38,676 bases of DNA, taken from positions 1 through 38,676 of IMG/VR virus record IMGVR_UViG_3300029573_000020. One strand, 5' to 3'. This DNA comes from a virus. The position numbers were made by a program, and so were the translations under genes. Under the pieces are notes generated by a model. That model was not told the origin of the DNA. It did no database searches and saw only the letters and a list, made by a program, of their open reading frames with translations. This document shows positions 560-22,177 of this stretch, one piece after another (within the stretch, counting starts at the first letter, position 1; the number at the start of each line of letters is the position of its first letter).

Positions 560-2129
560 ACCTCTTATCTATAGCAGCCTTATAGTTATATTTCTTTTCC
601 GCTAGTATATGTGCTTCACTATAATTATAACCCATTTTTTTCATTATAGCTAGCTCTAAATGTTCATGATTAAGTAAAATAATATCGCAATCGCGTATAT
701 CTTTCCCGTTCAATAAACGAGTAAAGCTATCTGCCATATCTGGATCAGGAAGGAATGTACTAGTACCCGACTGTAGTTCGTGTTTAGTAATAAAAACATG
801 CTCAAAAATTCTATTTAATCTACTTATCGAATACCCTGTATTCTTATGTATTTTACTAGCAAAATCATTTTTGCCACAATCAATAATTCTGGCATAGGTC
901 TGCTTGGCCTCTTCTTCTAATTTAAAATATTCTTGAACACTGATTAACGCACCCATTTCAAATGTGTGCAGCCTGCCTTTTACTTCCCGCATTCCAGCAT
1001 ACCCACGCATATACTTGCGCCAATCCTTGCCATCTTCCCACGCCTTCAAGCCTTTACGCCCCAACACCTGCGCCCTGCGTGGCTCCGGCAAGCTATTCAG
1101 CCATTTGTCGCCTGCTTCCCGCACCTGGTCGCGCTGCTGCTGCATATCAACTTCGCCTTCAATGACTTCCACGTACCGGCATAAGCAATGCGGATGTACC
1201 GGCAAAGATGGCAGCTTATCATTGGGATATATTCCTGCACCTAAGCCATACATATCAGCTTTGGCGTACATGTCGCAGATATCAAAAACAGGGTGACGGC
1301 TGCTTAACTTGAATTTCACAGCCACAATATCAGCGTCATCTTTTATCTTTGCTATGAAGCCATCAGCCCATGCCCTCGCCATCTCGGTTCGGGTGATACG
1401 TTCGGCAACATAGCGGGATTTTTCGTTGACAGCAACTTCCACGGCCTTTTCAATAGCCTTTTCATTGCCTTTTTGCACTGCTTCCAGCAATTTATTATAG
1501 GCTGCCTGCAGTGCCTTGTTAGGTGCGCCATTTTTAGCCAGACGATTGATGTTGTCAATGGCCTGCCTTTGCTCAGCCAATGCCTGCAGGTCGTTGCCTG
1601 TAGCTTCCCTTACCTTCTGCAGATACTTTGGCAGGTTCTGCCTGCTGATAATATCCTTGCCACCGTTATATACGTTCTGGCCATCATCGCCATATCCGTC
1701 AAACAACGCCCTTGCAGCCTCAGTCCAGGTCTTGTTCCGGCGCATCTGCTCCTGCAGGGTGCTTACAATGGCATCACGCATTTTCACGCCTACGCCATGC
1801 AGCTTTTCGGATAGCGTCATGCCGCTTTCATCCCATTTACTGGCCAGCTCTTCGCCCATGCTTTCTACTTGCGCTTTAGTCAGCATAGTCGGAACGATAC
1901 CATAAGCATAAGCTGCAGCCTCTACAAGCGCAGGCTTCAGTTCCGGTAGCGTAAACAGCTTACCATAGTGGCGCTGCACATTATCCAGTGCCTCTTCAAA
2001 CTTCATGCCACTAGCAATCAGCCTTTGTAAGTAAGCTACTGCTTTTTTAGCATCCTTGCGCCAGCTTTTATTCAGTTTGTTAATCAGCTGCGCCAGTCTG
2101 TCCGTCGTCGCCATCATCGCCACCGCCAT
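528..2129 (-). CDS. Head morphogenesis protein (SPP1 gp7 / Phage_Mu_F family) with a ~140-aa C-terminal extension encoded in AT-rich DNA (528..~960). The extension is a putative polymorphic-toxin domain.
   Basis: The MuF-like core (…RITRTEMARAWADGF…HPHCLCRYVEVIEG) sits directly after the portal gene, as in SPP1. There is an abrupt GC drop at ~960 for the C-terminal domain. The start is taken at ATG 2129 (MAVAMMATTD). Confidence 0.75.
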   Translation of the reverse strand: MAVAMMATTDRLAQLINKLNKSWRKDAKKAVAYLQRLIASGMKFEEALDNVQRHYGKLFTLPELKPALVEAAAYAYGIVPTMLTKAQVESMGEELASKWDESGMTLSEKLHGVGVKMRDAIVSTLQEQMRRNKTWTEAARALFDGYGDDGQNVYNGGKDIISRQNLPKYLQKVREATGNDLQALAEQRQAIDNINRLAKNGAPNKALQAAYNKLLEAVQKGNEKAIEKAVEVAVNEKSRYVAERITRTEMARAWADGFIAKIKDDADIVAVKFKLSSRHPVFDICDMYAKADMYGLGAGIYPNDKLPSLPVHPHCLCRYVEVIEGEVDMQQQRDQVREAGDKWLNSLPEPRRAQVLGRKGLKAWEDGKDWRKYMRGYAGMREVKGRLHTFEMGALISVQEYFKLEEEAKQTYARIIDCGKNDFASKIHKNTGYSISRLNRIFEHVFITKHELQSGTSTFLPDPDMADSFTRLLNGKDIRDCDIILLNHEHLELAIMKKMGYNYSEAHILAEKKYNYKAAIDKRYDSNGKNYST

Positions 2130-5790: not shown

Positions 5791-5877
5791 TGGTGCGTAG
5801 GGCTGGAATTGCACCAGCGTTGTATCTTACGTCACGGATTTACAGTCCGCTGCCTTCGCTACTCGGCTCACCTACGC
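5791..5877 (-). tRNA. tRNA-Tyr (anticodon GTA), type II with a long variable arm and slightly non-canonical features
   Basis: Minus-strand sequence GCGTAGG-TGA-GCC-GAGTAGCGAA-GGC-A-GCGGA-CTGTAAA-TCCGT-GACGTAAGATACAAC-GCTGG-TGCAATT-CCAGC-CCTACGC-A-CCA. It has a 7-bp acceptor stem, U33, the GUA anticodon, A37, a G53-C61 pair, an encoded CCA end and a CCGAG D-loop motif like bacterial tRNA-Tyr. Position 55 is G instead of U, and the D stem has a bulge. Confidence 0.55.
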
Positions 5878-13495: not shown

Positions 13496-13987
13496 TTATT
13501 TAATCTGCAGGTTCTGGCGTGCTACCAGCTCGCAGCCCGGTACAGTTTCACCGGCCTTGATAGCCTTTTTGACTGCAACCTTGTCCAGCTCCGGATCTTT
13601 GAATTTCAGGAATTCTTCCGGAACATCGCCGATGCACTTTGCGTCAAACTCCACTGCTTCACTTTTACGGAAGCTCATAGCTACTTTGGCACTTTCAAAC
13701 TTTTTGCCGTTCAGATAACGGCCCAGAAAACCTTTAAGGCTTTCCGCTTTGGCCTTGGCAGCCTTTTCACGTTCTGCGAAAGCGTTCTTCTGCGCTTTCA
13801 ATGCTTCTGCGTCCGCTAACAGGTTTTTATACCAGCAGCCCAGGTTCTCAATCTTCTTGTCGCGCTCCATTTCCAGAGCTGCGATTGCTTCAAGGTCGAT
13901 GATTTCACCGCTTTCGGTATCTACAACGCGGCTTTCGTCCAACTTGACGCAGGCCGCCAGCTTTTCGTCTATATCAAACAGTTTCAT
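13496..13987 (-). CDS. Sipho_Gp157-family protein
   Basis: Charged helical N-terminal half (…DAEALKAQKNAFAEREKAAK…) and a C-terminal …DVPEEFLKF… region resembling PF05565 (recalled by eye, not searched). It neighbours the single-strand annealing protein, as is usual. Confidence 0.5.
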   Translation of the reverse strand: MKLFDIDEKLAACVKLDESRVVDTESGEIIDLEAIAALEMERDKKIENLGCWYKNLLADAEALKAQKNAFAEREKAAKAKAESLKGFLGRYLNGKKFESAKVAMSFRKSEAVEFDAKCIGDVPEEFLKFKDPELDKVAVKKAIKAGETVPGCELVARQNLQIK

Positions 13988-13988
13988 G

Positions 13989-14150
13989 CTATGCCTCCTT
14001 TAAACTTACGTTGTTTACGATGTTCTGGAGCTCCCGGGTGGTAAGGCCGGCAAACTGATCCATGTTAAACATTTCTTTGGTAATGCCTTTTGCAAGCAGC
14101 TGATTTTGGAAGTAGTCCATTGTCAGGCCGTCATAATCTCTTTCGTTCAT
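13989..14150 (-). CDS. Small hypothetical protein (53 aa)
   Basis: GAGGTG RBS 6 nt before the ATG. MNERDYDGLTMDYFQNQLLAKGITKEMF… Its 3' end carries the RBS of the Gp157 gene. ATGA overlap with the upstream gene. Confidence 0.4.
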   Translation of the reverse strand: MNERDYDGLTMDYFQNQLLAKGITKEMFNMDQFAGLTTRELQNIVNNVSLKEA

Positions 14151-14410
14151 CTGCGCACCTCAATGGGAATCAGCACGATGTCCCCCGGCTGAAGGTCACC
14201 ATTCAAGTTGCTGATTTTCTTTGTATAAAAGATGACCTCGCGAATATCTCTGCGGTCTCCTTCGCGCTGCATGGTGTCACCCACCAGGTGCCAAAGGGTA
14301 TCACCTTCGCCGGCCGTAGCCTTGACAACATAATTATCAACCGGACGCGTTGCATCCCATGCAGCCCAAACGCAGCAGGCTGCCAGCAGAATGAACAATA
14401 CTTTTTTCAT
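14147..14410 (-). CDS. Secreted/membrane-anchored LysM-like small protein (YneA-like architecture)
   Basis: N-terminal signal/TM MKKVLFILLAACCVWAAW. The remainder is GDTLWHL…NGDLQPGDIVLIP, which is LysM-like. AAGGAG RBS. Confidence 0.4.
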   Translation of the reverse strand: MKKVLFILLAACCVWAAWDATRPVDNYVVKATAGEGDTLWHLVGDTMQREGDRRDIREVIFYTKKISNLNGDLQPGDIVLIPIEVRR

Positions 14411-14412
14411 AT

Positions 14413-14619
14413 CTACAACTCCTTCACGTTAAACGGATCAGTAACATCCTTGCCGTCATATGTGCTGAGGAACTCTTCCAAAGATTCGCGACGACATTTA
14501 AGGTTGCCAAGCTTCATGAATCTCAGCAGACCGGATTTTTTGAGCTTGTAAACGTAATCAACATTACATTTCAGAATTTTGCTTACTTCCGCAACAGTCA
14601 AAAGCTCTATACTTGCCAT
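14413..14619 (-). CDS. Small HTH DNA-binding protein (excisionase/MerR-like HTH_17)
   Basis: MASIELLTVAEVSKILKCNVDYVYKLKKSGLL. GGGAGGGTGAG RBS. Confidence 0.5.
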   Translation of the reverse strand: MASIELLTVAEVSKILKCNVDYVYKLKKSGLLRFMKLGNLKCRRESLEEFLSTYDGKDVTDPFNVKEL

Positions 14620-14672
14620 AATCTCACCCTCCCTTCTTCCATCACTTCTCCGCATCCATAATTCTGATTTCT

Positions 14673-14930
14673 TCAAGCATTACGTTTCAGCAACCAACGA
14701 AACCAGAAATAGCTTGCAGAAATCATCATCATATTGGCAGCAGCCACTATGGAAGCTTCTTGTACTCCAATTAAAGCCCAAGAAACCATGACAGCTATAA
14801 TGCTTAATACATTTATGCTCAGGCAACACACCCAAAGCTTTTTGAATGCTTGTTCCAGGTCAATGGGTCCGCTTATCGCCGTGCGTCCGCAAAACGGGCA
14901 CACGGTTATTTTCTTTTCTCCCATCACCAT
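14673..14930 (-). CDS. Zinc-ribbon membrane protein (85 aa)
   Basis: CPFCGRT motif, then two hydrophobic helices. TGATG coupling to the antirepressor stop. Confidence 0.4.
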   Translation of the reverse strand: MVMGEKKITVCPFCGRTAISGPIDLEQAFKKLWVCCLSINVLSIIAVMVSWALIGVQEASIVAAANMMMISASYFWFRWLLKRNA

Positions 14931-15694
14931 CACGCCCCGCAAAACTTGTTGATAAAGTACTGCTGGCCTTTGCCGGTAACCTTAGTGGTTTTGCTGACGC
15001 TGACGTGGCCGTCACTGTGGGAAATAGCCGTTTCTTTAATCTTGAACAAGCCCATTTCCATAGCTCTCTGCGTGGGGCTGTTGTAATCTGCTCCGGCACG
15101 CTTAATCAGGTATCCTTGCTCACGCATCCAGTTAAACAAGCGCTTCTGACCAATCGGATGGCCGTTCTGCTTCAGAATCTTCGCAAGGTCACCGATCAGA
15201 ATCGTGCTGTCAGACGCGCTCACCGCATCTGCAAAGAGTACCTTCGGCTTCGCCGCCTGCAAGCTGGCTTCCGCCTGTTGGCGAGCTGCTCTTTCCTCTT
15301 TTAAAGTTGTCGCCAGCTTTATAATCGTGTCCGGGTCAGTTAGTGCCTGCTCAATTTTATCGGCCGTCAGATATCCACCGTGTTTTCTGATTGCCGGAAG
15401 CACCTCGCTGGTCACCCATTCTTGAAAAGCTTCTGCCTTATCGGTTTTCGCTCTCATTACCAAACTGTAAAGTCCGGCTTCATCAATAATTGTAGTTTCT
15501 TGTTTACCTCCAGGGGTGTCCAAAACAGACATACCTTTATGGTTATCTTTTACGTGTTCTCTGACAGCCTTAGCTGTTTGACTGTAACCTAATGCTTGGG
15601 CTACATCCTTACCAACAAACCACGGCTCACCATTTTGCTGAATGGTACGAATCTGACCAAAGTCAGGACTGTTGAAAATTTTAATGTTATTCAC
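14930..15694 (-). CDS. Phage antirepressor (Bro-N + KilA-C/ANT domains)
   Basis: N-terminal IRTIQQNGEPWFVGKDVAQALGY (Bro-N). C-terminal LIGDLAKILKQNGHPIGQKRLFNWMREQGYL (KilA-C). Confidence 0.8.
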   Translation of the reverse strand: MNNIKIFNSPDFGQIRTIQQNGEPWFVGKDVAQALGYSQTAKAVREHVKDNHKGMSVLDTPGGKQETTIIDEAGLYSLVMRAKTDKAEAFQEWVTSEVLPAIRKHGGYLTADKIEQALTDPDTIIKLATTLKEERAARQQAEASLQAAKPKVLFADAVSASDSTILIGDLAKILKQNGHPIGQKRLFNWMREQGYLIKRAGADYNSPTQRAMEMGLFKIKETAISHSDGHVSVSKTTKVTGKGQQYFINKFCGA

Positions 15695-15728
15695 TTGGCA
15701 CCTCTTTTCTTAAACGCCGTCTGTTTTT

Positions 15729-15747
15729 TGTAGACTATTTGTCTACA
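15729..15747. promoter_or_regulatory. Operator copy O2 (TGTAGACT-ATT-TGTCTACA), between the cro-like gene and the antirepressor gene
   Basis: Near-identical to O1. It overlaps the cro-like stop codon and lies 35 bp upstream of the antirepressor start. Confidence 0.55.
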
Positions 15748-15956
15748 TCACAGGCAAAAAAAATTGCTTCTTTTTCACTTAATTTAGAAATTCTAAGCAA
15801 ATCGCACATTTTAGAGATTTCACCAGCGTTGAACGGGACCTCATTGTTAATTTTTCTTTTTAATGTTTGATATGTAACTTTAAGTTCCGCTGCAATTCTG
15901 GCTTTTTTCAATCCGCTATCTGCAATAGCTTTTTCTAATTTGACTGTATCTGTCAC
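15735..15956 (-). CDS. Cro-like XRE-family HTH regulator
   Basis: LKKARIAAELKVTYQTLKRKINNEVPFNAGEISKMCDLL helix-turn-helix. Divergent from the repressor gene. GTG start with GGGAGG RBS. Confidence 0.65.
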   Translation of the reverse strand: MTDTVKLEKAIADSGLKKARIAAELKVTYQTLKRKINNEVPFNAGEISKMCDLLRISKLSEKEAIFFACDVDK

Positions 15957-15972
15957 GTTATCGCCTCCCTTT

Positions 15973-15991
15973 TGTAGACATTTTGTCTACA
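15973..15991. promoter_or_regulatory. Operator O1, the 8-3-8 palindrome TGTAGACA-TTT-TGTCTACA
   Basis: Perfect inverted repeat. It lies between the -10 of the leftward promoter and the cro-like RBS. Confidence 0.65.
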
Positions 15992-15996
15992 TCACT

Positions 15997-16025
15997 ATTA
16001 TATTTCTTTGTTTCCTGTTTGTCAA
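15997..16025 (-). promoter_or_regulatory. Leftward early promoter (PR-like). -35 TTGACA, 17-bp spacer, -10 TATAAT.
   Basis: On the minus strand TTGACA is 16025..16020 and TATAAT is 16002..15997. Both are consensus sigma-70 hexamers with a 17-bp spacer. Confidence 0.7.
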
Positions 16026-16044
16026 CAAAATTTTAGTGATTTTG

Positions 16045-16073
16045 TTGCATTTTTTTCTACACGATGTTACAAT
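16045..16073 (+). promoter_or_regulatory. Rightward repressor promoter (PRM-like). -35 TTGCAT, 17 bp, -10 TACAAT.
   Basis: TTGCAT 16045..16050 and TACAAT 16068..16073. A GTCTACA-like half-site (ttctacac) lies in the spacer. Upstream of RBS AAGGAGAG. Confidence 0.5.
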
Positions 16074-16102
16074 AAATTTAAACAAAAAGGAGAGTGAACA
16101 CA

Positions 16103-16552
16103 ATGACCACTATAGGAGACCGTATAAAAGCACGTAGATTAGAATTAGATATGTCGCAAGATGAATTAGCAAGATTAGTTGGATATAAATCGCGTTCATC
16201 TATCAATAAAATTGAAAGTGACGGCAGATTGCTACCCCAAAGAAAAATTATGGAAATTGCAAATGCGCTTAATACAACGCCAGCATATATTATGGGATGG
16301 GAAGAATCTAACGAAACCGAAGCTCCCTCCGTCCCCCTCACCCCCCGCGATGAACGCCAAATCGCCGCAGACCTCGAAAAAATGCTTGCCGACCTCGACA
16401 GCAAAAACTCTATGGCTGCCATGGGCGGTACCGTTGAAGATGATGAAGACAGAGAACTCCTGAAAGCAAGCCTGCAGGCTACCATGCGACTGGCAAAGAA
16501 AATCGCCAAAGAAAAATACACTCCTAAAAAATATCGCCACGAAGAGGAATAA
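16103..16552 (+). CDS. Phage repressor, XRE-family HTH (ImmR-like). No S24 peptidase domain.
   Basis: MTTIGDRIKARRLELDMSQDELARLVGYKSRSSINKIE HTH_XRE. Acidic C-terminal half. Followed directly by an ImmA-like gene. Confidence 0.8.
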   Translation: MTTIGDRIKARRLELDMSQDELARLVGYKSRSSINKIESDGRLLPQRKIMEIANALNTTPAYIMGWEESNETEAPSVPLTPRDERQIAADLEKMLADLDSKNSMAAMGGTVEDDEDRELLKASLQATMRLAKKIAKEKYTPKKYRHEEE

Positions 16553-16556
16553 TATC

Positions 16557-16976
16557 ATGGATATCAAGGCTGCTGTGAAGCAGCTTACACATAAGCACAA
16601 AACAAATAACCCCTATGAGCTGGCGCAGCTGCTGAACATCATCGTCATGTACGCAGAGCTTGGCAGCACATGGGGCTACTACACTACATATAAGCGTTCC
16701 AAGTTTATCATCATTAACCAGAACATATCCGAAGAATTGCAAGCATACACCTGCGCCCATGAGCTTGGGCACAGTGTTTTACATAAAGGCGTATCGACGC
16801 CATTCCTCAAAGCCCATACCCTTTTCAGCATAGAGAAAATAGAACGGCAGGCCAACACCTTCGCCGTGGAACTGCTCCTGCCGGATGAGCTGCTGCAGCA
16901 GTACCCGGAAACTTCCATTCACCGCCTTGCTGACATGGTAGGCGTGCCGATGGGGCTGGAAGTGCTTAAGAGGTAA
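16557..16976 (+). CDS. ImmA/IrrE-family HExxH metallopeptidase (antirepressor protease)
   Basis: AHELGHSVLH zinc-binding motif. Its position immediately downstream of the repressor matches the ImmR/ImmA arrangement. Confidence 0.75.
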   Translation: MDIKAAVKQLTHKHKTNNPYELAQLLNIIVMYAELGSTWGYYTTYKRSKFIIINQNISEELQAYTCAHELGHSVLHKGVSTPFLKAHTLFSIEKIERQANTFAVELLLPDELLQQYPETSIHRLADMVGVPMGLEVLKR

Positions 16977-16998
16977 AAAGGAACTTGGTAAAAACAGC

Positions 16999-17064
16999 CT
17001 TTTTTACCAAAGACGTCAGGTGTCTTTTGGAAAACGTGCCTTTTTTACCAAAGACGTTAGGCAT
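16999..17064. repeat. Two direct copies of GCCTTTTTTACCAAAGACGT(C/T)AGG
   Basis: Copies at 16999..17024 and 17038..17063 (26 bp, one mismatch). Non-coding, between immA and the first terminator hairpin. Confidence 0.6.
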
Positions 17065-17094
17065 AAAAAAAGACCGCCAGCGGAAGGCTGACGG
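17063..17094 (-). terminator. Minus-strand intrinsic terminator T3, embedded in 48-bp repeat copy A
   Basis: Minus-strand RNA CCGUCAGC-CUUCC-GCUGGCGG forms an 8-bp stem (the plus-strand mismatch becomes a G·U pair) followed by UCUUUUUUUAUG. Confidence 0.55.
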
Positions 17095-17201
17095 CAAGGA
17101 AGAAATTGACGATTTGATTGATGTTAAGCTGGCCAAGCTCCAGCGCAAGGCTGACGGTGGGGAGTTTAGGATAATAGATTTCGAAAGCGAGGAATGAAGA
17201 C

Positions 17202-17996
17202 ATGAAAGATGTAAAATTGTTTCAGAGTGCGCAAATTCGCTCCATTTGGAACGATGAAGCCGGAGAATGGTTCTTTTCTGTTGTCGATGTTGTCGGTGCA
17301 TTGACCGACAGTGCAGATAAATCAGCTTATTGGCGCAAACTAAAGCAAAGAATGAAGGTAGAAGGTAATGAAACCGTGACAAATTGTCACAGGTTGAAAT
17401 TGCTTGCAGAAGACGGGAAAATGCGTCTCACTGACACCGCAAATACAGAAGGTATTCTGCGTATTATCCAATCTGTCCCCTCACCTAAAGCCGAACCATT
17501 CAAGCAGTGGCTCGCGCAACTCGGTGCGGACCATATCCACGACCTTGAAGCAGCAGAAGCCTTCAACAAAGAAATAGACGCTCGCATTGAAGCACGAAAT
17601 AATATCAAACAGCATAACATTGCTCTCGCTGATGCAGCCTTTGCCGCAGGCGTAAAAACGAACCTTGACTTCGCCAAATTTCAAAATAGCGGTTACATGG
17701 GACTTTATGGCGGTGAAACCGCTGGCGATATAAAACGTCGCAAGAAACTTAAACCTAATCAAGAGATTTTAGACCACATGGGCAGTGTGGAACTCGGTGC
17801 GAACCTGTTCCGCATTACGCAGGCAGAAGACAAACTGCGCCGTGAGAATATCAGTAGCAAAGAAGCTGCCAACAAAGTGCATTACGAAGTCGGTCGTACC
17901 GTTCGCAAAACTATTGAAGAACTCGGCGGCACAATGCCAGAGAAATTGCCTACGCCAAGCGAAAGTATTAAGCAGCTCGATAAACCTAAAAAATAA
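17202..17996 (+). CDS. dinD: DinD-like (DNA-damage-inducible protein D family) protein with an N-terminal Bro-N domain
   Basis: N-terminal IRSIWNDEAGEWFFSVVDVVGALTDS (Bro-N). The C-terminal half (QNSGYMGLYGGETAGDIKRRKKLKPNQEILDHMGSVELGANLFRITQAEDKLRRENISSKEAANKVHYEVGRTVRKTIEELGGTMPEKLPTPSESIKQL) closely resembles E. coli DinD as I recall it. Confidence 0.7.
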   Translation: MKDVKLFQSAQIRSIWNDEAGEWFFSVVDVVGALTDSADKSAYWRKLKQRMKVEGNETVTNCHRLKLLAEDGKMRLTDTANTEGILRIIQSVPSPKAEPFKQWLAQLGADHIHDLEAAEAFNKEIDARIEARNNIKQHNIALADAAFAAGVKTNLDFAKFQNSGYMGLYGGETAGDIKRRKKLKPNQEILDHMGSVELGANLFRITQAEDKLRRENISSKEAANKVHYEVGRTVRKTIEELGGTMPEKLPTPSESIKQLDKPKK

Positions 17997-18023
17997 AAAA
18001 GACCGCCAGCGGAAGGCTGACGG
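17988..18023 (-). terminator. Minus-strand intrinsic terminator T2, in 48-bp repeat copy B. Begins at the DinD stop codon.
   Basis: Same hairpin as T3 (CCGCCAGC-GGAAG-GCTGACGG on plus). Followed on the minus strand by UCUUUUUUAUUUUUU. Confidence 0.55.
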
Positions 18024-18136
18024 CAGGGAAGATATTGACGATATTATAGCTGATACCTTTATTGCGTAAAGGTATCTTGTAAACACCTTTAAATTCTCTC
18101 TTTTTTTAAAGGTATCACGGAGATAGCTTTATGGCA

Positions 18137-18167
18137 TAAAAAAGACCGCCAGCTTTTCAGCTGGCGG
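18137..18167 (-). terminator. Minus-strand intrinsic terminator T1, downstream of the moron operon
   Basis: Perfect hairpin CCGCCAGC-UUUUCA-GCUGGCGG on plus. The minus-strand RNA is followed by UCUUUUUUAUG. It shares the ggcataaaaaagaccgccagc prefix with copy A. Confidence 0.65.
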
Positions 18168-18182
18168 AAAAATGTTGCTTCA

Positions 18183-18593
18183 CTATATTCTGCTTTTTAA
18201 AAAAGATGCTCCAATAGAGCCTACCGCAAGGAAACAGGCTCCACCTGCCACCCAAGGTTGACCTAAATATAGAGCGTAGGCAGCTACTCCGATAATGCAC
18301 ACTCCTAAGATAAACGCCATGTACTGACCTCGTTTATCACGCATAGCAGTCAAATCGAGTTCTTTGGCTTTTAATTCTCTTATAGCTTTTGCATTTTCCT
18401 TAAAATCGTTAATGATATCAGATGCTGAACCAGGAACAATGTTATCATATTCCGCTAAAATCTGAGGATGGGGAAGCAATCCTTCAAAATGTTCCGCAAC
18501 AACAATATCACCATTAGATGCAACTCTATTTCTAACTGATTTGTCGTCCTTTGCCGGTTTCGATTGTGCCAATTCTCTTTCCCACCTTATCAA
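18183..18593 (-). CDS. Membrane protein, DUF2335-like (putative). Moron.
   Basis: LPHPQILAEYDNIVPGSASDIINDFKENAKAIRELKAKELDL then two C-terminal TM helices. The start codon is uncertain (TTG; AAGGTGGG RBS upstream of an internal TTG). Confidence 0.45.
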   Translation of the reverse strand: MIRWERELAQSKPAKDDKSVRNRVASNGDIVVAEHFEGLLPHPQILAEYDNIVPGSASDIINDFKENAKAIRELKAKELDLTAMRDKRGQYMAFILGVCIIGVAAYALYLGQPWVAGGACFLAVGSIGASFLKSRI

Positions 18594-18759
18594 TAGATTT
18601 TCTCAAAGAACTGCCCGTCCTTAACCATGCAGCTTTTGAAATTGTACTAGGACTTTGAGGGACAAAATCTGCATAATTAGTATTAGGCATAATGGTAAAA
18701 GTAGAAAAGCCGCACATTACAGAGGCAATAAGCGCTTTAATTTTTGCCAATTTGTACAC
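18532..18759 (-). CDS. Small hypothetical protein overlapping the 5' end of the DUF2335-like gene
   Basis: AAGGAGGTG RBS, then GTG/TTG. Hydrophobic N-terminus. Coding status uncertain. Confidence 0.3.
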   Translation of the reverse strand: MYKLAKIKALIASVMCGFSTFTIMPNTNYADFVPQSPSTISKAAWLRTGSSLRKSIDKVGKRIGTIETGKGRQIS

Positions 18760-18784
18760 CTCCTTAATTATGTTGCACTTGTAT

Positions 18785-18815
18785 ATTGTACCACATTAGG
18801 AAAAACAACTCAATA
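18785..18815 (-). promoter_or_regulatory. Candidate promoter of the moron operon (extended -10 TGG-TACAAT)
   Basis: Minus-strand TGGTACAAT at 18793..18785, with a weak TTGAGT -35 at 17-bp spacing. Confidence 0.35.
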
Positions 18816-19052
18816 TAACTGTGCCCTTGTACACTTAATTTTAACATTTTTCGTTTTAAAAGTAAATTACCATAAGTAAATTTTACAAAGGGTCTGATTT
18901 TAATGTAAAAATCCCCCGGTGCTACCAACACCGAGGGACCTGCAAGAACGTGTTACCAGCACGCTCAACGTCATCAACCCCCGAACCACCAAGAGCTGAT
19001 TACTTTTTTATTATATCAGCTCTGCTCGTAAAATGAAAGGAGCTGATTTTTT

Positions 19053-20327
19053 ATGTCAACATTAAACGTAACAAAACGCGGCGATAAATGGCAGTACCGT
19101 TTCGAAACTGCTTCCGTCGACGGCAAGCGTAAGCGTGTTTCCAAATCCGGCTTTAAAACGAAAAAGGAAGCCGTGGAAGCCGGAACCAGGGCGCTGGCAG
19201 AATACAACGAAAGCGGTCAGACTTTCAATCTTTCCAGCATTTCCGTTGCGGATTATCTGGACAGTTGGATTGATACTTACTGCAAAATGAACCTAAAATA
19301 TAATACCCAGCTTGGCTATCTTTATACTATCGAAAATCATCTGAAGCCCAGCCTTGGTATGTATAGGCTGAAATCTCTTACACCCTCCGCCATTCAGGAA
19401 TTCGTAAATGCTCTGAAGCTGCGTGGTCTCAGCAGGGCAAGCATCGTCGGTATATTCTCCACGCTCTCTGCAGCGCTGGATTATGCTATTGAGCCGTTGA
19501 AGTACATCCAGTATAATCCATGCAATAACGTAAGAATCCCCAAGGATACGGCAGCCAAGAAGGAAACCCGGTACATCATAACACCGGAGCAGTTTAAGCA
19601 GATTTTAGAGCGCTTTCCGGAAGGCTCTAATTTTTATATTCCGCTTATGATCGGCTACTACACCGGCGTAAGAATTTCCGAATGCTTCGGCCTTACTTGG
19701 AATGATGTCGATTTTGATAATAAGACCATAAGTATCAGCAAGGCTTTGCTTAAGCGCAACTGTGGCGCAGATGTAAGGGAAATCCTGAAGAAGAAGGGCA
19801 AGAAGGAAGAGAAAAGCGCCTGGTATTTCAACAGCACAAAAACTTTCAAGTCCAACCGCATCATCAACATCGGTGATACACTCTGTGCTGCATTGAAAAA
19901 AGCTTATGACCGGCAAATGGCCAACAAAGCCTTCTATGACGAATACTACACAAAAATCTACAAAAAGCCGGAGCAGGACGAAAAAGGCGATACCATTTAC
20001 CGGCTCATAGAAATTGAAGCCGGAGTGCCCTGCCCTCTTGAGTCCGTGGATATGATAAACGTAAGGGAGAACGGCCAGCTGCTGAGTATGGACAGCATGA
20101 AGTATTGCAGCCGTGCAATCCACTATGAGCTGAAGATAAATTTCAACTACCATTCACTGCGGCATACACACGCTACAACGCTTATCGAGAACGGTGCCAA
20201 TATAAAGGACGTGCAGGAGCGTTTAGGACACTGCAACATAGAAACAACACTTAATACATATACCCACAATACCGACTACCTGAGAAATCAATCAGTAGAA
20301 ATCTTTGAAAAGGCGGTTCAAAAATAA
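19053..20327 (+). CDS. int: Tyrosine site-specific integrase
   Basis: C-terminal catalytic pattern …NYHSLRHTHATTLIENGANIKDVQERLGHCNIETTLNTYTH (R…HxxR…Y). AAAGGAG RBS. Confidence 0.95.
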   Translation: MSTLNVTKRGDKWQYRFETASVDGKRKRVSKSGFKTKKEAVEAGTRALAEYNESGQTFNLSSISVADYLDSWIDTYCKMNLKYNTQLGYLYTIENHLKPSLGMYRLKSLTPSAIQEFVNALKLRGLSRASIVGIFSTLSAALDYAIEPLKYIQYNPCNNVRIPKDTAAKKETRYIITPEQFKQILERFPEGSNFYIPLMIGYYTGVRISECFGLTWNDVDFDNKTISISKALLKRNCGADVREILKKKGKKEEKSAWYFNSTKTFKSNRIINIGDTLCAALKKAYDRQMANKAFYDEYYTKIYKKPEQDEKGDTIYRLIEIEAGVPCPLESVDMINVRENGQLLSMDSMKYCSRAIHYELKINFNYHSLRHTHATTLIENGANIKDVQERLGHCNIETTLNTYTHNTDYLRNQSVEIFEKAVQK

Positions 20328-20336
20328 ACAAAAAAA

Positions 20337-20381
20337 GGCGCCCAGACAGCAAATGATTGTTGTCTGAGCGCTTTGTTTTTT
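20337..20381 (+). terminator. Intrinsic terminator after int
   Basis: GGCGCCCAGACAGCAA-atga-TTGTTGTCTGAGCGC stem, then TTTGTTTTTTG. An A-run precedes it, so it may act in both directions. Confidence 0.65.
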
Positions 20382-20389
20382 GCTATTAA

Positions 20390-20887: not shown

Positions 20888-21292
20888 TTACAGCTTTTCC
20901 TTGACTAAAACTACAACTACACCGCCGGCAATAATCTGCCAAAGCAGCCGCTGTCTTTTAACGCGCTTCTCCTCGCGCGCGGATGCCTGCAAGTATTTGT
21001 TGGCACTCTCCAATAAGCTGCTCTGAGCTTGCAGCTCTATCTGCAGCTTTATTGATTCCGTCTTGAGCTTGCTCAATTCCGCTCTCGACTCTTTCAGCGC
21101 TGCTTGTGATTCTGCCAGCGCTTGTCTGCTGGCTCTTGTTTGCTCTAATAGCAGATTCAAGCGACTGTCGAGCGCTGTCATCTCCGTTGCAGTCATCGTG
21201 TAGGTTGTAGCCGATGACGCCGCCGATGCAGAGGCAGACAACAGCAAGCACAATGTAGCTGCAGTAATTGCGCAATATTGTTTTAAGCACAT
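20888..21292 (-). CDS. XhlA-like lysis-associated coiled-coil membrane protein (134 aa)
   Basis: ATG 21292 overlaps the M15 peptidase stop (TAAGATG) with a GGGAGGG RBS. Sequence is MCLKQYCAITAATLCLLLSASASA…(coiled coil LNLLLEQTRASRQALAESQAALKESRAELSKLKTESIKLQIELQ)…RLLWQIIAGGVVVVLV with a C-terminal TM. Confidence 0.5.
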   Translation of the reverse strand: MCLKQYCAITAATLCLLLSASASAASSATTYTMTATEMTALDSRLNLLLEQTRASRQALAESQAALKESRAELSKLKTESIKLQIELQAQSSLLESANKYLQASAREEKRVKRQRLLWQIIAGGVVVVLVKEKL

Positions 21293-21293
21293 C

Positions 21294-21662
21294 TTAGCCC
21301 TCCCAAGTAAAGTATCCTGGAACGGAACCACCCTCGCGCATATCCACATGCACAAAACCGCTGTCAACGTAGGTGCCCACGCCATCGAAAATCTGCTTGC
21401 AGATATTGGCCAGCTCACGCACGCCCATGCCATCAACATAGATATCTGCAGCAGTGCCTTTGACATGCTGGCTGTTCCAGACGCCGCCCACAGCGCGATT
21501 ATGATCCGGACAACGATAGCCGCTGCTGATGTTAATCGGTCTGCCGATGCGCAGGCGCAGGTGCTCCAGTCCCAACAGGAATGCCATGCTGATACCGGTC
21601 GTAGGCAGCATGCCACAGCAACGGCATGCAAATTCAGCTTCAGAAAAATGTTCAGTTAACAT
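21294..21662 (-). CDS. Peptidase M15 family zinc peptidase (endolysin)
   Basis: FSEAEFACRCCG…SGYRCPDHNRAVGGVWNSQHVKGTAADI pattern of the Peptidase_M15_3 / L-Ala-D-Glu peptidase family. Confidence 0.75.
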   Translation of the reverse strand: MLTEHFSEAEFACRCCGMLPTTGISMAFLLGLEHLRLRIGRPINISSGYRCPDHNRAVGGVWNSQHVKGTAADIYVDGMGVRELANICKQIFDGVGTYVDSGFVHVDMREGGSVPGYFTWEG

Positions 21663-21667
21663 AGTAA

Positions 21668-22177
21668 TCAGCCCTTTCTCTTTTTAATGATAGCTGCCAG
21701 TTCCCCGACGGCCTCAATGCCTGCATCACTCAAATTCTCACAAATCGACAGCAGCTCCGTGATGACCAAGTATCCAGCCACCAAAGGAACGGCCCACACA
21801 GGCTGATGCAGCGTAATCATCGCCAAATCTACAAGCACGGCAGCAAGCACGCAGAGGATGTACACTATGACCTTGCCAACAAAGCGATGCTTCATCACTT
21901 CCGAGGAAATCAATCCTTCCGCACGCGCCGCCTCAATGCCGCCTATAATCTGCATCACAGACGGAGTTTGCCCCATGCCCTGCAGGCGCTTGTAAGACAG
22001 GCTCATCCAGCGAGTGAAGCAGTCCAAAAATACCAACGCGGTAAAAACCATAAACAACACCGCGTGTTTGTGCAGCAAGACGGCCAAAATAGCACCAATA
22101 ACCGATTTATAAGTAAAACCATGAGTCAAAGTGTGTGCCGCGTTATATACGGCGTAGCGCAAAGCTAAAAAATCCAT
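21668..22177 (-). CDS. Holin (putative; multi-TM)
   Basis: 169 aa with three or four hydrophobic helices. Directly upstream of the endolysin. TTAGGAGG RBS. Confidence 0.6.
   Translation of the reverse strand: MDFLALRYAVYNAAHTLTHGFTYKSVIGAILAVLLHKHAVLFMVFTALVFLDCFTRWMSLSYKRLQGMGQTPSVMQIIGGIEAARAEGLISSEVMKHRFVGKVIVYILCVLAAVLVDLAMITLHQPVWAVPLVAGYLVITELLSICENLSDAGIEAVGELAAIIKKRKG

Follow-up and report, generated by a model that had tools for sequence, protein, structure and literature searches.

We examined the end of the lysis cassette in a 38,676-nucleotide stretch of viral DNA (IMG/VR record IMGVR_UViG_3300029573_000020, positions 1 to 38,676; hereafter the window), where two open reading frames (ORFs) share nearly all of their sequence. 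On the minus strand the cassette runs from holin to endolysin to this overlapping pair, its last unit. The two ORFs are named as follows: f1 is the 134-residue ORF from the ATG at 21292, and f2 is the 110-residue ORF from the GTG at 21290. The features are:

21668..22177, minus strand: holin, 169 aa, first gene of the cassette (Pfam Phage_holin_4_1, E=4.6e-11; PHROG holin)
21294..21662, minus strand: endolysin, 122 aa (Pfam PF08291 Peptidase_M15_3, E=1.1e-23; PHROG endolysin, E=1e-32)
21298..21304, minus strand: shared Shine-Dalgarno sequence GGGAGGG, within the final codons of the endolysin gene
21288..21292, minus strand: overlapping start codons ATGTG, with the f1 ATG at 21292 and the f2 GTG at 21290
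20888..21292, minus strand: f1, 134 aa (translation, homologues, AlphaFold2 (AF2) model, hydropathy, family alignment, selection tests)
20958..21290, minus strand: f2, 110 aa (translation, homologues, profile search, AF2 model, hydropathy, weak PHROG matches)
20888..20957, minus strand: f1-only segment past the f2 stop, coding for the C-terminal anchor module RQRLLWQIIAGGVVVVLVKEKL
19053..20327, plus strand: tyrosine integrase (Pfam Phage_integrase, E=5e-27, plus Arm-DNA-bind_4)

The endolysin consists of one Peptidase_M15_3 domain, without a cell-wall-binding domain, and its TAA stop codon occupies 21296..21294 (minus strand). GGGAGGG is spaced 5 nt from the f1 ATG and 7 nt from the f2 GTG. 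f2 lies wholly within f1 and uses the endolysin frame, one codon past the endolysin stop; the f1 frame is +1 relative to f2. The first-pass annotation of this stretch had given f1 as 134 codons from ATG 21292, behind a GGGAGGG ribosome-binding site (RBS) and a TAA just upstream, and f2 as 110 codons from GTG 21290, 2 nt past the f1 ATG, in another frame and fully nested; all of these coordinates were confirmed on the sequence. It had also taken a 247-residue ORF call for an overprint across the peptidase gene, and rightly: that ORF (21631..20888) is the f1 frame extended upstream across the endolysin gene. The open stretch upstream of the f1 start differs in length among related loci, from 53 to 407 nt, and the extension is therefore not conserved.

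The integrase gene lies just beyond on the other strand, which places the lysis cassette at the end of a Phascolarctobacterium prophage. A promoter and terminator scan gave no signal exceeding the shuffled expectation. The endolysin gene is overlain by open frames on both strands, one of 113 codons in the f1 frame (20888..21631, minus strand) and one of 103 residues at 21348..21659 (plus strand). These long alternative frames look like by-products of composition, their extent varying among relatives, and they make ORF length by itself unreliable in this genome.

Dual coding in close and distant relatives

Both f1 and f2 are almost certainly real protein-coding genes, judging by the comparisons that follow. 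Given the f1 protein and genome codon usage, the probability that the f2 frame is open over its 110 codons is 1.3e-4; given the f2 protein, the corresponding value for the f1 frame over the overlap is 2.5e-3. In the +2 frame, open runs across 13 real window genes reach at most 82 codons, and runs of at least 110 codons in the +1 frame occur three times. With long +1-frame runs this common, openness alone supports f1 weakly and the comparison among relatives decides; argued from this one sequence, the case for f2 is good and that for f1 no more than moderate.

We took 40 related loci as DNA, so no gene-caller bias enters, and found both frames open in all 40. The start context GGGAGGGCTAA[G/A]ATGTG is kept in all 39 loci that have the start (GGGAGG[G/C/A], then TAA[G/A]ATGTG). 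The second codon of f1 is Cys or Trp (TGC, TGT or TGG), a radical change, yet the TG of the f2 GTG is always kept. Database searches gave 265 homologues for f1 and 464 for f2, nearly all of the latter exactly 110 residues long among the best 120 of the 464; one f1 entry is named, from Phascolarctobacterium succinatutens.

Nucleotide diversity among the related loci at codon positions 1, 2 and 3 is 0.10, 0.086 and 0.34 for the endolysin and 0.079, 0.040 and 0.31 for the holin. By f1 positions the overlap gives 0.062/0.087/0.105, and no class acts as a free third position. This outcome agrees with two genes: diversity in the overlap is flat and low, unlike in the holin and endolysin genes. Past the f2 stop the third position of f1 is again the highest (0.076/0.053/0.179 for one type of tail and 0.164/0.079/0.291 for another).

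Selection was gauged by counting observed over all possible single-base changes, scored against the consensus and not on a tree, with the related sequences non-independent; this caveat is minor, because the effects are large and the deep lineages described below are independent. In the flanking genes 386 of 644 possible silent changes are seen (0.60), and about 0.10 of those that change an amino acid. Within the overlap, changes silent in f1 only are seen in 43 of 210 cases (0.20; Fisher p=5e-24 against flanking silent changes), those silent in f2 only in 47 of 205 (0.23; p=9e-21), those silent in neither frame in 44 of 488 (0.09), and those silent in both in 4 of 5. Each class silent in a single frame is thus about three-fold below flanking silent changes and about two-fold above doubly non-silent ones (p=5e-5 and 2e-6). 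Along the overlap, constraint from f2 leads over its transmembrane (TM) helix, constraint from f1 leads over the juxtamembrane linker of f2, and elsewhere the two are equal. The N-terminal region of f1 is somewhat constrained, with 16 of 44 f2-silent changes seen against 386 of 644 in the flanks. The synonymous-site check named in the first-pass annotation therefore came out positive for each frame, and the situation that it had set against a second gene, only one frame being conserved at the protein level, is not what we see: both are conserved.

These counts bear on the idea, kept as a fallback by the first-pass annotation, that f1 alone is a gene and f2 an accidental open frame. f1 is the longer of the two and starts with ATG, and the other frames of a coiled-coil gene can resemble a protein. 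With f1-silent changes depleted three-fold, the probability of an open f2 frame at 1.3e-4 in the window and as low as 7e-10 in other lineages, no +2-frame run above 82 codons in the 13 window genes, variation at f1 codon 2 that always spares the f2 GTG, and 54 distant relatives of f2 that share its TM helix and C-terminal motif (below), this idea is very improbable.

A 9-nt insertion polymorphism was seen at about 21205..21197 of the window, with the equivalent site in L007, L010 and L017-L035. It is a tandem duplication that adds TYT to f1 (TTYTTYTMT) and NLH to f2 (NLHNLHDD), falls in the f2 linker, and is tolerated in both frames.

A search of 1.84 billion representatives with an f2 profile built on the close family of the window pair (cut-off E<=1e-3) found 54 distant ones (50% identity clusters), most of them aligned over nearly the full profile. 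They are 104-137 residues long, except for two of 186 and 206. The family features are an N-terminal TM helix, V.DNG.G...R.QL after it, and a C-terminal LI.ECQQIL..VR.RGE (alignment A3). By these shared features f2 belongs to a real, wide family. A homologue search with distant f2 members mostly recovered the Phascolarctobacterium group again.

The main exception to near-full alignment is P0243, a 107-residue database protein corresponding roughly to 21292..20958 of the window. It follows f1 for roughly its first 47 residues (MWKKHCAITAATLC...LDSRLNLL) and then the f2 frame (...QEHQASAERITSS...LIGECQQILAGIRARGEAH). This chimera is either a natural frameshift or deletion joining both frames, or an assembly error.

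Distant DNA was available for 11 loci or groups (L042, L043, L044, L046, L047, L048, L049/L050, L051-L055, L056-L058, L059 and L060). In all 11 the +1 frame is open across the entire f2-like gene and codes for an f1-like protein of the same build: a Sec-type signal peptide, a small-x-small site, a long coiled coil and a C-terminal anchor. The motif [YF]T[IV]TE.EL sits 0-4 residues from the small-x-small site, and the f1-like proteins also share S.E/DSAN..L..Y..E; their identity to window f1 is 21-32% (alignment A4). Between P0245, which is the f2-like protein of L043, and close relatives of window f2 the identity is about 38%, and overall the pair is conserved jointly down to about 25-35% protein identity. 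The two starts are 2-6 nt apart in all lineages. L060, although distant, also starts ATGTG, and L046, L047, L048 and L059 have ATGnATG or ATG-6-ATG. The chance of an open second frame ranges from 7e-3 to 7e-10 per lineage, the lowest values being in loci of 29-32% GC because stops are frequent there in alternative frames. By this recurrence the f1/f2 pair is an old, conserved module.

The converse idea, with f2 as the sole gene and f1 as a +1 frame open by accident, draws on the three long +1-frame runs in the 13 window genes, on the f1 frame being open across the endolysin gene as well, and on the hydrophobic N-terminus of f1, which is partly dictated by the f2 TM codons. It meets a three-fold depletion of f2-silent changes and an f1 frame open in every distant lineage, even at 29% GC (P as low as 1e-7). 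At 21-32% identity the f1-like proteins still share the signal peptide, motifs, coiled coil and anchor, and the f1 segment past the f2 stop has the diversity pattern of a single gene and three interchangeable types of anchor. We consider this reading just as improbable as the preceding one, and dual coding secure to the limit of what sequence analysis offers.

The two proteins

f2 has a short basic N-terminus (K3, R7), a TM helix at residues 9-28 (Kyte-Doolittle 2.24 over 19 residues) and then an acidic linker, NLHDDCNGDD. Because of these three elements it is predicted to be bitopic, N-in and C-out, with about 80 helical residues outside the membrane. The AF2 model (predicted local distance difference test score, pLDDT, 73.5) has helices at 2-31 and 39-109, the second ending in the family motif LIGECQQILAGIRARGE, which contains Cys96. 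This residue (in ECQQIL) is invariant in the close family and is Ser or Gly in some distant members; no other element of the module is as well conserved as the C-terminal motif. The same layout of f2 is repeated in 46 distant relatives. By prediction f2 has the features that define the inner-membrane subunit of a spanin (i-spanin), namely an N-terminal TM domain (TMD), type II topology and a helical periplasmic domain, and it agrees with i-spanins in position, size and a conserved Cys as well.

Neither window f2 nor its distant relatives match a Pfam family. Against PHROG Rz-like spanin families window f2 gives weak matches (E=0.058 and 0.15); the best is that of family member P0254 to phrog_89 (E=3.8e-5), with others at 3e-3 to 6e-3. 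phrog_18860 ('unknown function') matches window f2 at E=0.019 and two distant f2 members at E=4e-5 and 2e-3. For f1 Pfam has no family, and the f1-like proteins match phrog_6631 (unknown function). Taken together, Pfam and PHROG searches with f1, f2 and the distant relatives returned coiled-coil noise, the weak Rz-like matches and families of unknown function, and beyond the weak ones no functionally annotated PHROG match was found for f1 or f2.

f1 begins with a predicted Sec-type signal peptide (residues 1 to about 25) whose n-region contains Lys and is followed by a hydrophobic core of 13 residues and an ASASAA cleavage region. There follow a conserved mature N-terminal motif, TTYTMTATEM (29-38), a conserved LLESANK.LQASA.EE (94-107), and at 106-134 five to six basic residues and a hydrophobic tail of about 15 residues. 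The AF2 model (pLDDT 85) has helices at 2-25 and 35-133 with a loop between them. The descriptions in the first-pass annotation hold for both products, of f1 as a signal-like N-terminus, coiled coil and C-terminal hydrophobic helix, and of f2 as an N-terminal TM helix with a polar tail. A small-x-small site (ASA, SAA, VSA or CSA) lies just ahead of the TYTIT motif in all lineages. The signal peptide is kept in every lineage despite complete turnover of its sequence, which argues that the f1 coiled coil lies outside the cytoplasm. Mature f1 has no Cys; in two-component spanins both subunits have periplasmic cysteines, through which covalent homodimers form.

Two other accounts of the f1 N-terminus were considered and rejected. 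As a lipoprotein, f1 would need a lipobox, which it lacks; the residues before Cys15 are ATL, AIF or ATW, and Cys15 itself is not invariant, being Tyr in L032-L034. An internal start at Met33 or Met38, giving an XhlA-like protein without a signal peptide, was rejected as the main product, because no Shine-Dalgarno sequence with usable spacing lies ahead of either Met, the f1 N-terminal region is somewhat constrained and all distant lineages keep a signal peptide; it may still give a minor product.

The f1 anchor is modular and is encoded outside the f2 overlap, and f1 carries the sole variable, membrane-directed module of the pair. The close family has two unrelated types of helix, the second being AQRNTAIVAAVGLLAYAINK. 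In Megamonas prophages the anchor is instead a Gly/aromatic, beta-type tail of about 40 residues ending ...TIGWQI[NK]F or ...GLQ[CY]RF, and these variants have no C-terminal TM helix. The L046 tail is similar to the Megamonas type and ends ...AGYKVRF, and L049 has a helix tail. Since L046 and L049 have an identical mature N-terminus (AQEKTYTIT) and different tails, the anchor types appear to be interchangeable on the same body; in all, the segment exists as three exchangeable types. Sequence matches in the PDB to SMC proteins, SNAREs, tropomyosin and viral fusion proteins were treated as compositional and were not taken as evidence of a fusogen.

A candidate for the outer-membrane step of lysis

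The family of the window pair comes from Phascolarctobacterium prophages. A uracil permease adjoining L047 is an exact Megamonas protein, and ribosomal protein S2 and ribosome recycling factor adjoining L059 are exact matches to proteins of an Acidaminococcaceae metagenome-assembled genome (MAG). All of these identified hosts belong to the Negativicutes, Firmicutes that have an outer membrane. In the window, as in every distant locus with context, the pair comes immediately after the endolysin gene. The neighbouring endolysins are short (119-207 aa) and single-domain, none with a wall-binding domain; their types are Peptidase_M15_3 (119-124 aa), Amidase_2 (167 aa), Amidase_3 (182 aa) and GH25 (193-195 aa). 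Short single-domain endolysins are the usual type in phages of double-membraned hosts.

The standard outer-membrane step of lysis is a lipoprotein spanin. In Terrabacteria the Lol lipoprotein-export system is reported to be "practically absent", and Bam and Lpt to be without their outer-membrane lipoprotein components (Witwinowski et al., 10.1101/2021.05.31.446380). With Lol reported absent, a lipoprotein outer-membrane subunit (o-spanin) should not be usable in these hosts. A literature search found no paper on spanins of Negativicute phages, and outer-membrane passage by phages of double-membraned Firmicutes was not addressed in the literature searched; a comparative study of 485 Negativicute prophages limited its lysis annotation to holin and lysin.

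We propose, with a probability of roughly one half, that the pair is a lipoprotein-free equivalent of a spanin that disrupts the outer membrane of a double-membraned host; it is the best candidate for outer-membrane breakage by these phages. The holin would open the inner membrane, the endolysin would cut the wall, and the f2/f1 pair would then remove the outer membrane. f2 would act as the inner-membrane, Rz-like subunit, and f1 as an exported coiled-coil partner that links to or attacks the outer membrane, replacing an Rz1-like lipoprotein subunit that would be unworkable in hosts without Lol. The f1 coiled coil (about 80 residues, about 12 nm) and the f2 helix of about 70 residues could together be long enough to bridge the periplasm. 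Near-coincident starts would fix the f1:f2 ratio, and the shared DNA would keep the two coiled coils co-evolving.

The Megamonas tail ends G-x-x-hydrophobic-x-Phe-COOH, which resembles the beta-signal consensus at the C-termini of outer-membrane beta-barrels that BAM recognises. Such a tail would put the f1 C-terminus in the outer membrane, and by analogy the cationic hydrophobic helix of window f1 may act on the outer membrane too. This last is the weakest step of the proposal, because export by Sec normally leaves a protein with a C-terminal hydrophobic helix anchored in the inner membrane, and the basic cluster is on the wrong side of the helix for that topology. The Megamonas arrangement of a coiled coil followed by a Gly/aromatic beta segment with this ending is like the anchors of trimeric autotransporters and the TolC type, unlike which it is only about 40 residues long; no match to Pfam YadA_anchor or another outer-membrane-protein family was found for the Megamonas-type tail.

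Several observations weigh against the spanin-equivalent proposal. f1 has no lipobox of the o-spanin type ([LVI][ASTVI][GAS]C) and thus no canonical route to the outer membrane, and the lipoprotein signal that defines unimolecular spanins (u-spanins) is likewise missing. Window f1 has five to six basic residues before its C-terminal helix and one to two after it, which violates the positive-inside rule for a Sec-exported inner-membrane stop; the topology is ambiguous, and the anchor may sit in either membrane. Should the helix sit in the inner membrane, f1 and f2 would both be located there, and it would not be obvious what reaches the outer membrane. The Megamonas beta-type tail may not be a membrane anchor, its one match in the PDB being a pyrroloquinoline quinone (PQQ) propeller blade (E about 0.05, weak and not significant). 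The hydrophobic core of f1 follows in part from the f2 TM codons (xTx read as Txx in +1), and f1 constraint is weakest over the f2 TM region. Pfam and PHROG give no significant homology to any characterised spanin, and the weak PHROG spanin matches could reflect shared TM-plus-coiled-coil composition. Host assignment covers three lineages, with L043, L044, L046, L048, L049 and L060 outside it, so restriction of the pair to double-membraned hosts is not proven.

The position of the basic residues also bears on the main rival, in which both genes are real and their products work at the cytoplasmic membrane, either partnering the holin or regulating lysis timing. XhlA (from PBSX; Pfam PF10779) is a coiled coil with a C-terminal TM helix, and BhlA/UviB-type proteins have an N-terminal TM helix and a coiled coil. 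The helix of f1 is C-terminal like that of XhlA, and that of f2 is N-terminal like that of BhlA; all are small lysis-cassette proteins, the basic cluster before the f1 helix would suit a cytoplasmic coiled coil, and family member P0257 weakly matches a PHROG 'hemolysin' family. The first-pass annotation had likened f1 to XhlA on this architecture. The likeness goes no further than the build: the XhlA hidden Markov model (HMM) has no match at E<=1 to window f1 or to four distant f1-like proteins, Pfam BhlA likewise gives none even at E<=1, and f1 has a conserved, cleavable Sec-type signal peptide with its small-x-small site in every lineage. Unlike the genes for XhlA and BhlA/UviB-type proteins, those of the pair overlap. 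The Megamonas f1 variants lack the C-terminal TM helix, the identified hosts are all double-membraned and the adjoining endolysins all single-domain. A holin is already present in the cassette, and L043 has its own BhlA-like protein upstream in addition. We consider the cytoplasmic-membrane role unlikely, although it is the most plausible of the alternatives.

It is less likely again that f1 disrupts the outer membrane alone, as a single-chain, spanin-like or viral-fusion-like protein with its C-terminal helix in the inner membrane and its N-terminal motif reaching the outer membrane, f2 being an accessory or inhibitor. The model here is the unimolecular spanin gp11 of phage T1, whose N-terminus lies at the outer membrane and whose TMD is C-terminal (PMC6139136). 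The order of signal peptide, N-terminal motif, coiled coil, basic cluster and TM helix in f1 matches the topology of gp11, and mature f1 is free of Cys, as reported for u-spanins (PMC6139136). The two proteins are alike too in that f1 is about 130 residues long, has an N-terminal export signal and mostly a C-terminal hydrophobic helix, and is encoded by the last cassette gene. However, f1 is without a lipoprotein signal, its TYTITE.EL motif is polar, unlike a hydrophobic fusion peptide, and its periplasmic part is one long alpha-helix where that of gp11 is beta-rich. Megamonas variants keep the N-terminal motif without the C-terminal TM helix, and the shared AQEKTYTIT of L046 and L049 goes with differing tails. 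f1 is also always paired with an overlapping gene that is constrained as strongly as itself, and it is the C-terminal motif of f2 that is most conserved in the module. We therefore regard a solitary role for f1 as improbable.

Returning to the proposed spanin equivalent, the closest comparison is with lambda Rz/Rz1 and P2 LysB/LysC. As in those systems, the pair closes a holin-endolysin cassette, the phage host is double-membraned, and two frames share DNA, the partner being read +1 relative to the Rz-like gene. f2 is like Rz in its N-terminal TMD, predicted N-in/C-out topology, helical periplasmic domain and conserved periplasmic Cys, and constraint over the shared stretch is divided between the frames, as for Rz/Rz1 (PMC6139136). 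f1 is unlike Rz1, a small proline-rich lipoprotein: it is a coiled-coil protein of 130-170 residues that has a signal of the signal-peptidase-I type and a C-terminal anchor of its own and is without a lipobox. The usual o-spanin start in lambda-type pairs is at 0.4-0.5 of the i-spanin length (PMC6139136), whereas here the genes overlap almost completely, a single RBS serves both starts at a spacing of 2-6 nt, and the partner gene is the longer one and runs on past the end of the other. The first-pass annotation had asked whether this was an Rz/Rz1-like arrangement, an embedded spanin-like pair with both frames translated. Purifying selection on both frames and conservation of the pair fit that part of its suggestion; the pair is not canonical Rz/Rz1, because f1 is without a lipobox, and the roles are reversed relative to lambda, the inner 110-residue ORF being Rz-like and the longer outer ORF its partner.

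The pair differs from the described two-component spanin families in having no significant sequence homology to any of them, and by these searches it fits no described family. A tblastn search with four family members against 50,697 GenBank phage records gave no match, though the low-complexity filter may hide coiled coils. We suggest, somewhat more tentatively than the function itself, that the pair represents an undescribed class of two-component spanin for double-membraned hosts without outer-membrane lipoprotein export, the Negativicutes. Its members would combine an Rz-like inner-membrane subunit with a Sec-exported coiled-coil subunit whose outer-membrane anchor is made of protein, in Megamonas phages a BAM-type beta tail with a terminal Phe and in other phages a cationic hydrophobic helix. 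The two would be encoded by almost fully overlapping genes with starts 2-6 nt apart and one RBS.

The module is a concrete, testable candidate for a missing lysis step in hosts reported to be without Lol and outer-membrane lipoproteins. It is present in prophages of the abundant human-gut genera Phascolarctobacterium and Megamonas. As an example of near-total dual coding the module is unusually clean, with about 110 codons read in two frames, both products predicted to be helical membrane proteins, and one RBS. Gene callers report one frame per contig, so half of the module is missing from every annotation.

Further observations were made on the neighbourhood of the pair. L043 codes at 1124..1435 for an extra protein of 103 residues with an N-terminal TM helix and a coiled coil (a BhlA-like build); it lies upstream of a holin-like gene and a putative 188-residue endolysin, separate from the overlapping pair. 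In Megamonas prophages a GSP_synth-like gene (glutathionylspermidine-synthase family, about 420 aa) lies beside the lysis genes (L047 6843..8099; L058 365..1639). Negativicute peptidoglycan is polyamine-modified for tethering of the outer membrane, and a phage polyamine ligase adjoining the lysis cassette is possibly relevant in that light. The phage contig L046, with the beta-tailed f1, codes at 13959..20384+ for a protein of more than 4,500 residues with SLT, Peptidase_M15_3 and SNF2-helicase domains. L037 and L039 (CAVCLW01...) and L041 (JAUMVS01...) were deposited as 'Escherichia coli isolate ...cleanbin' and 'Phoenicibacter congonensis' MAGs; most likely these contigs are mis-binned and carry a Phascolarctobacterium-type prophage region. 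In the window itself, a tRNA-Tyr gene at 5791..5877 (minus strand) is the sole tRNA gene.

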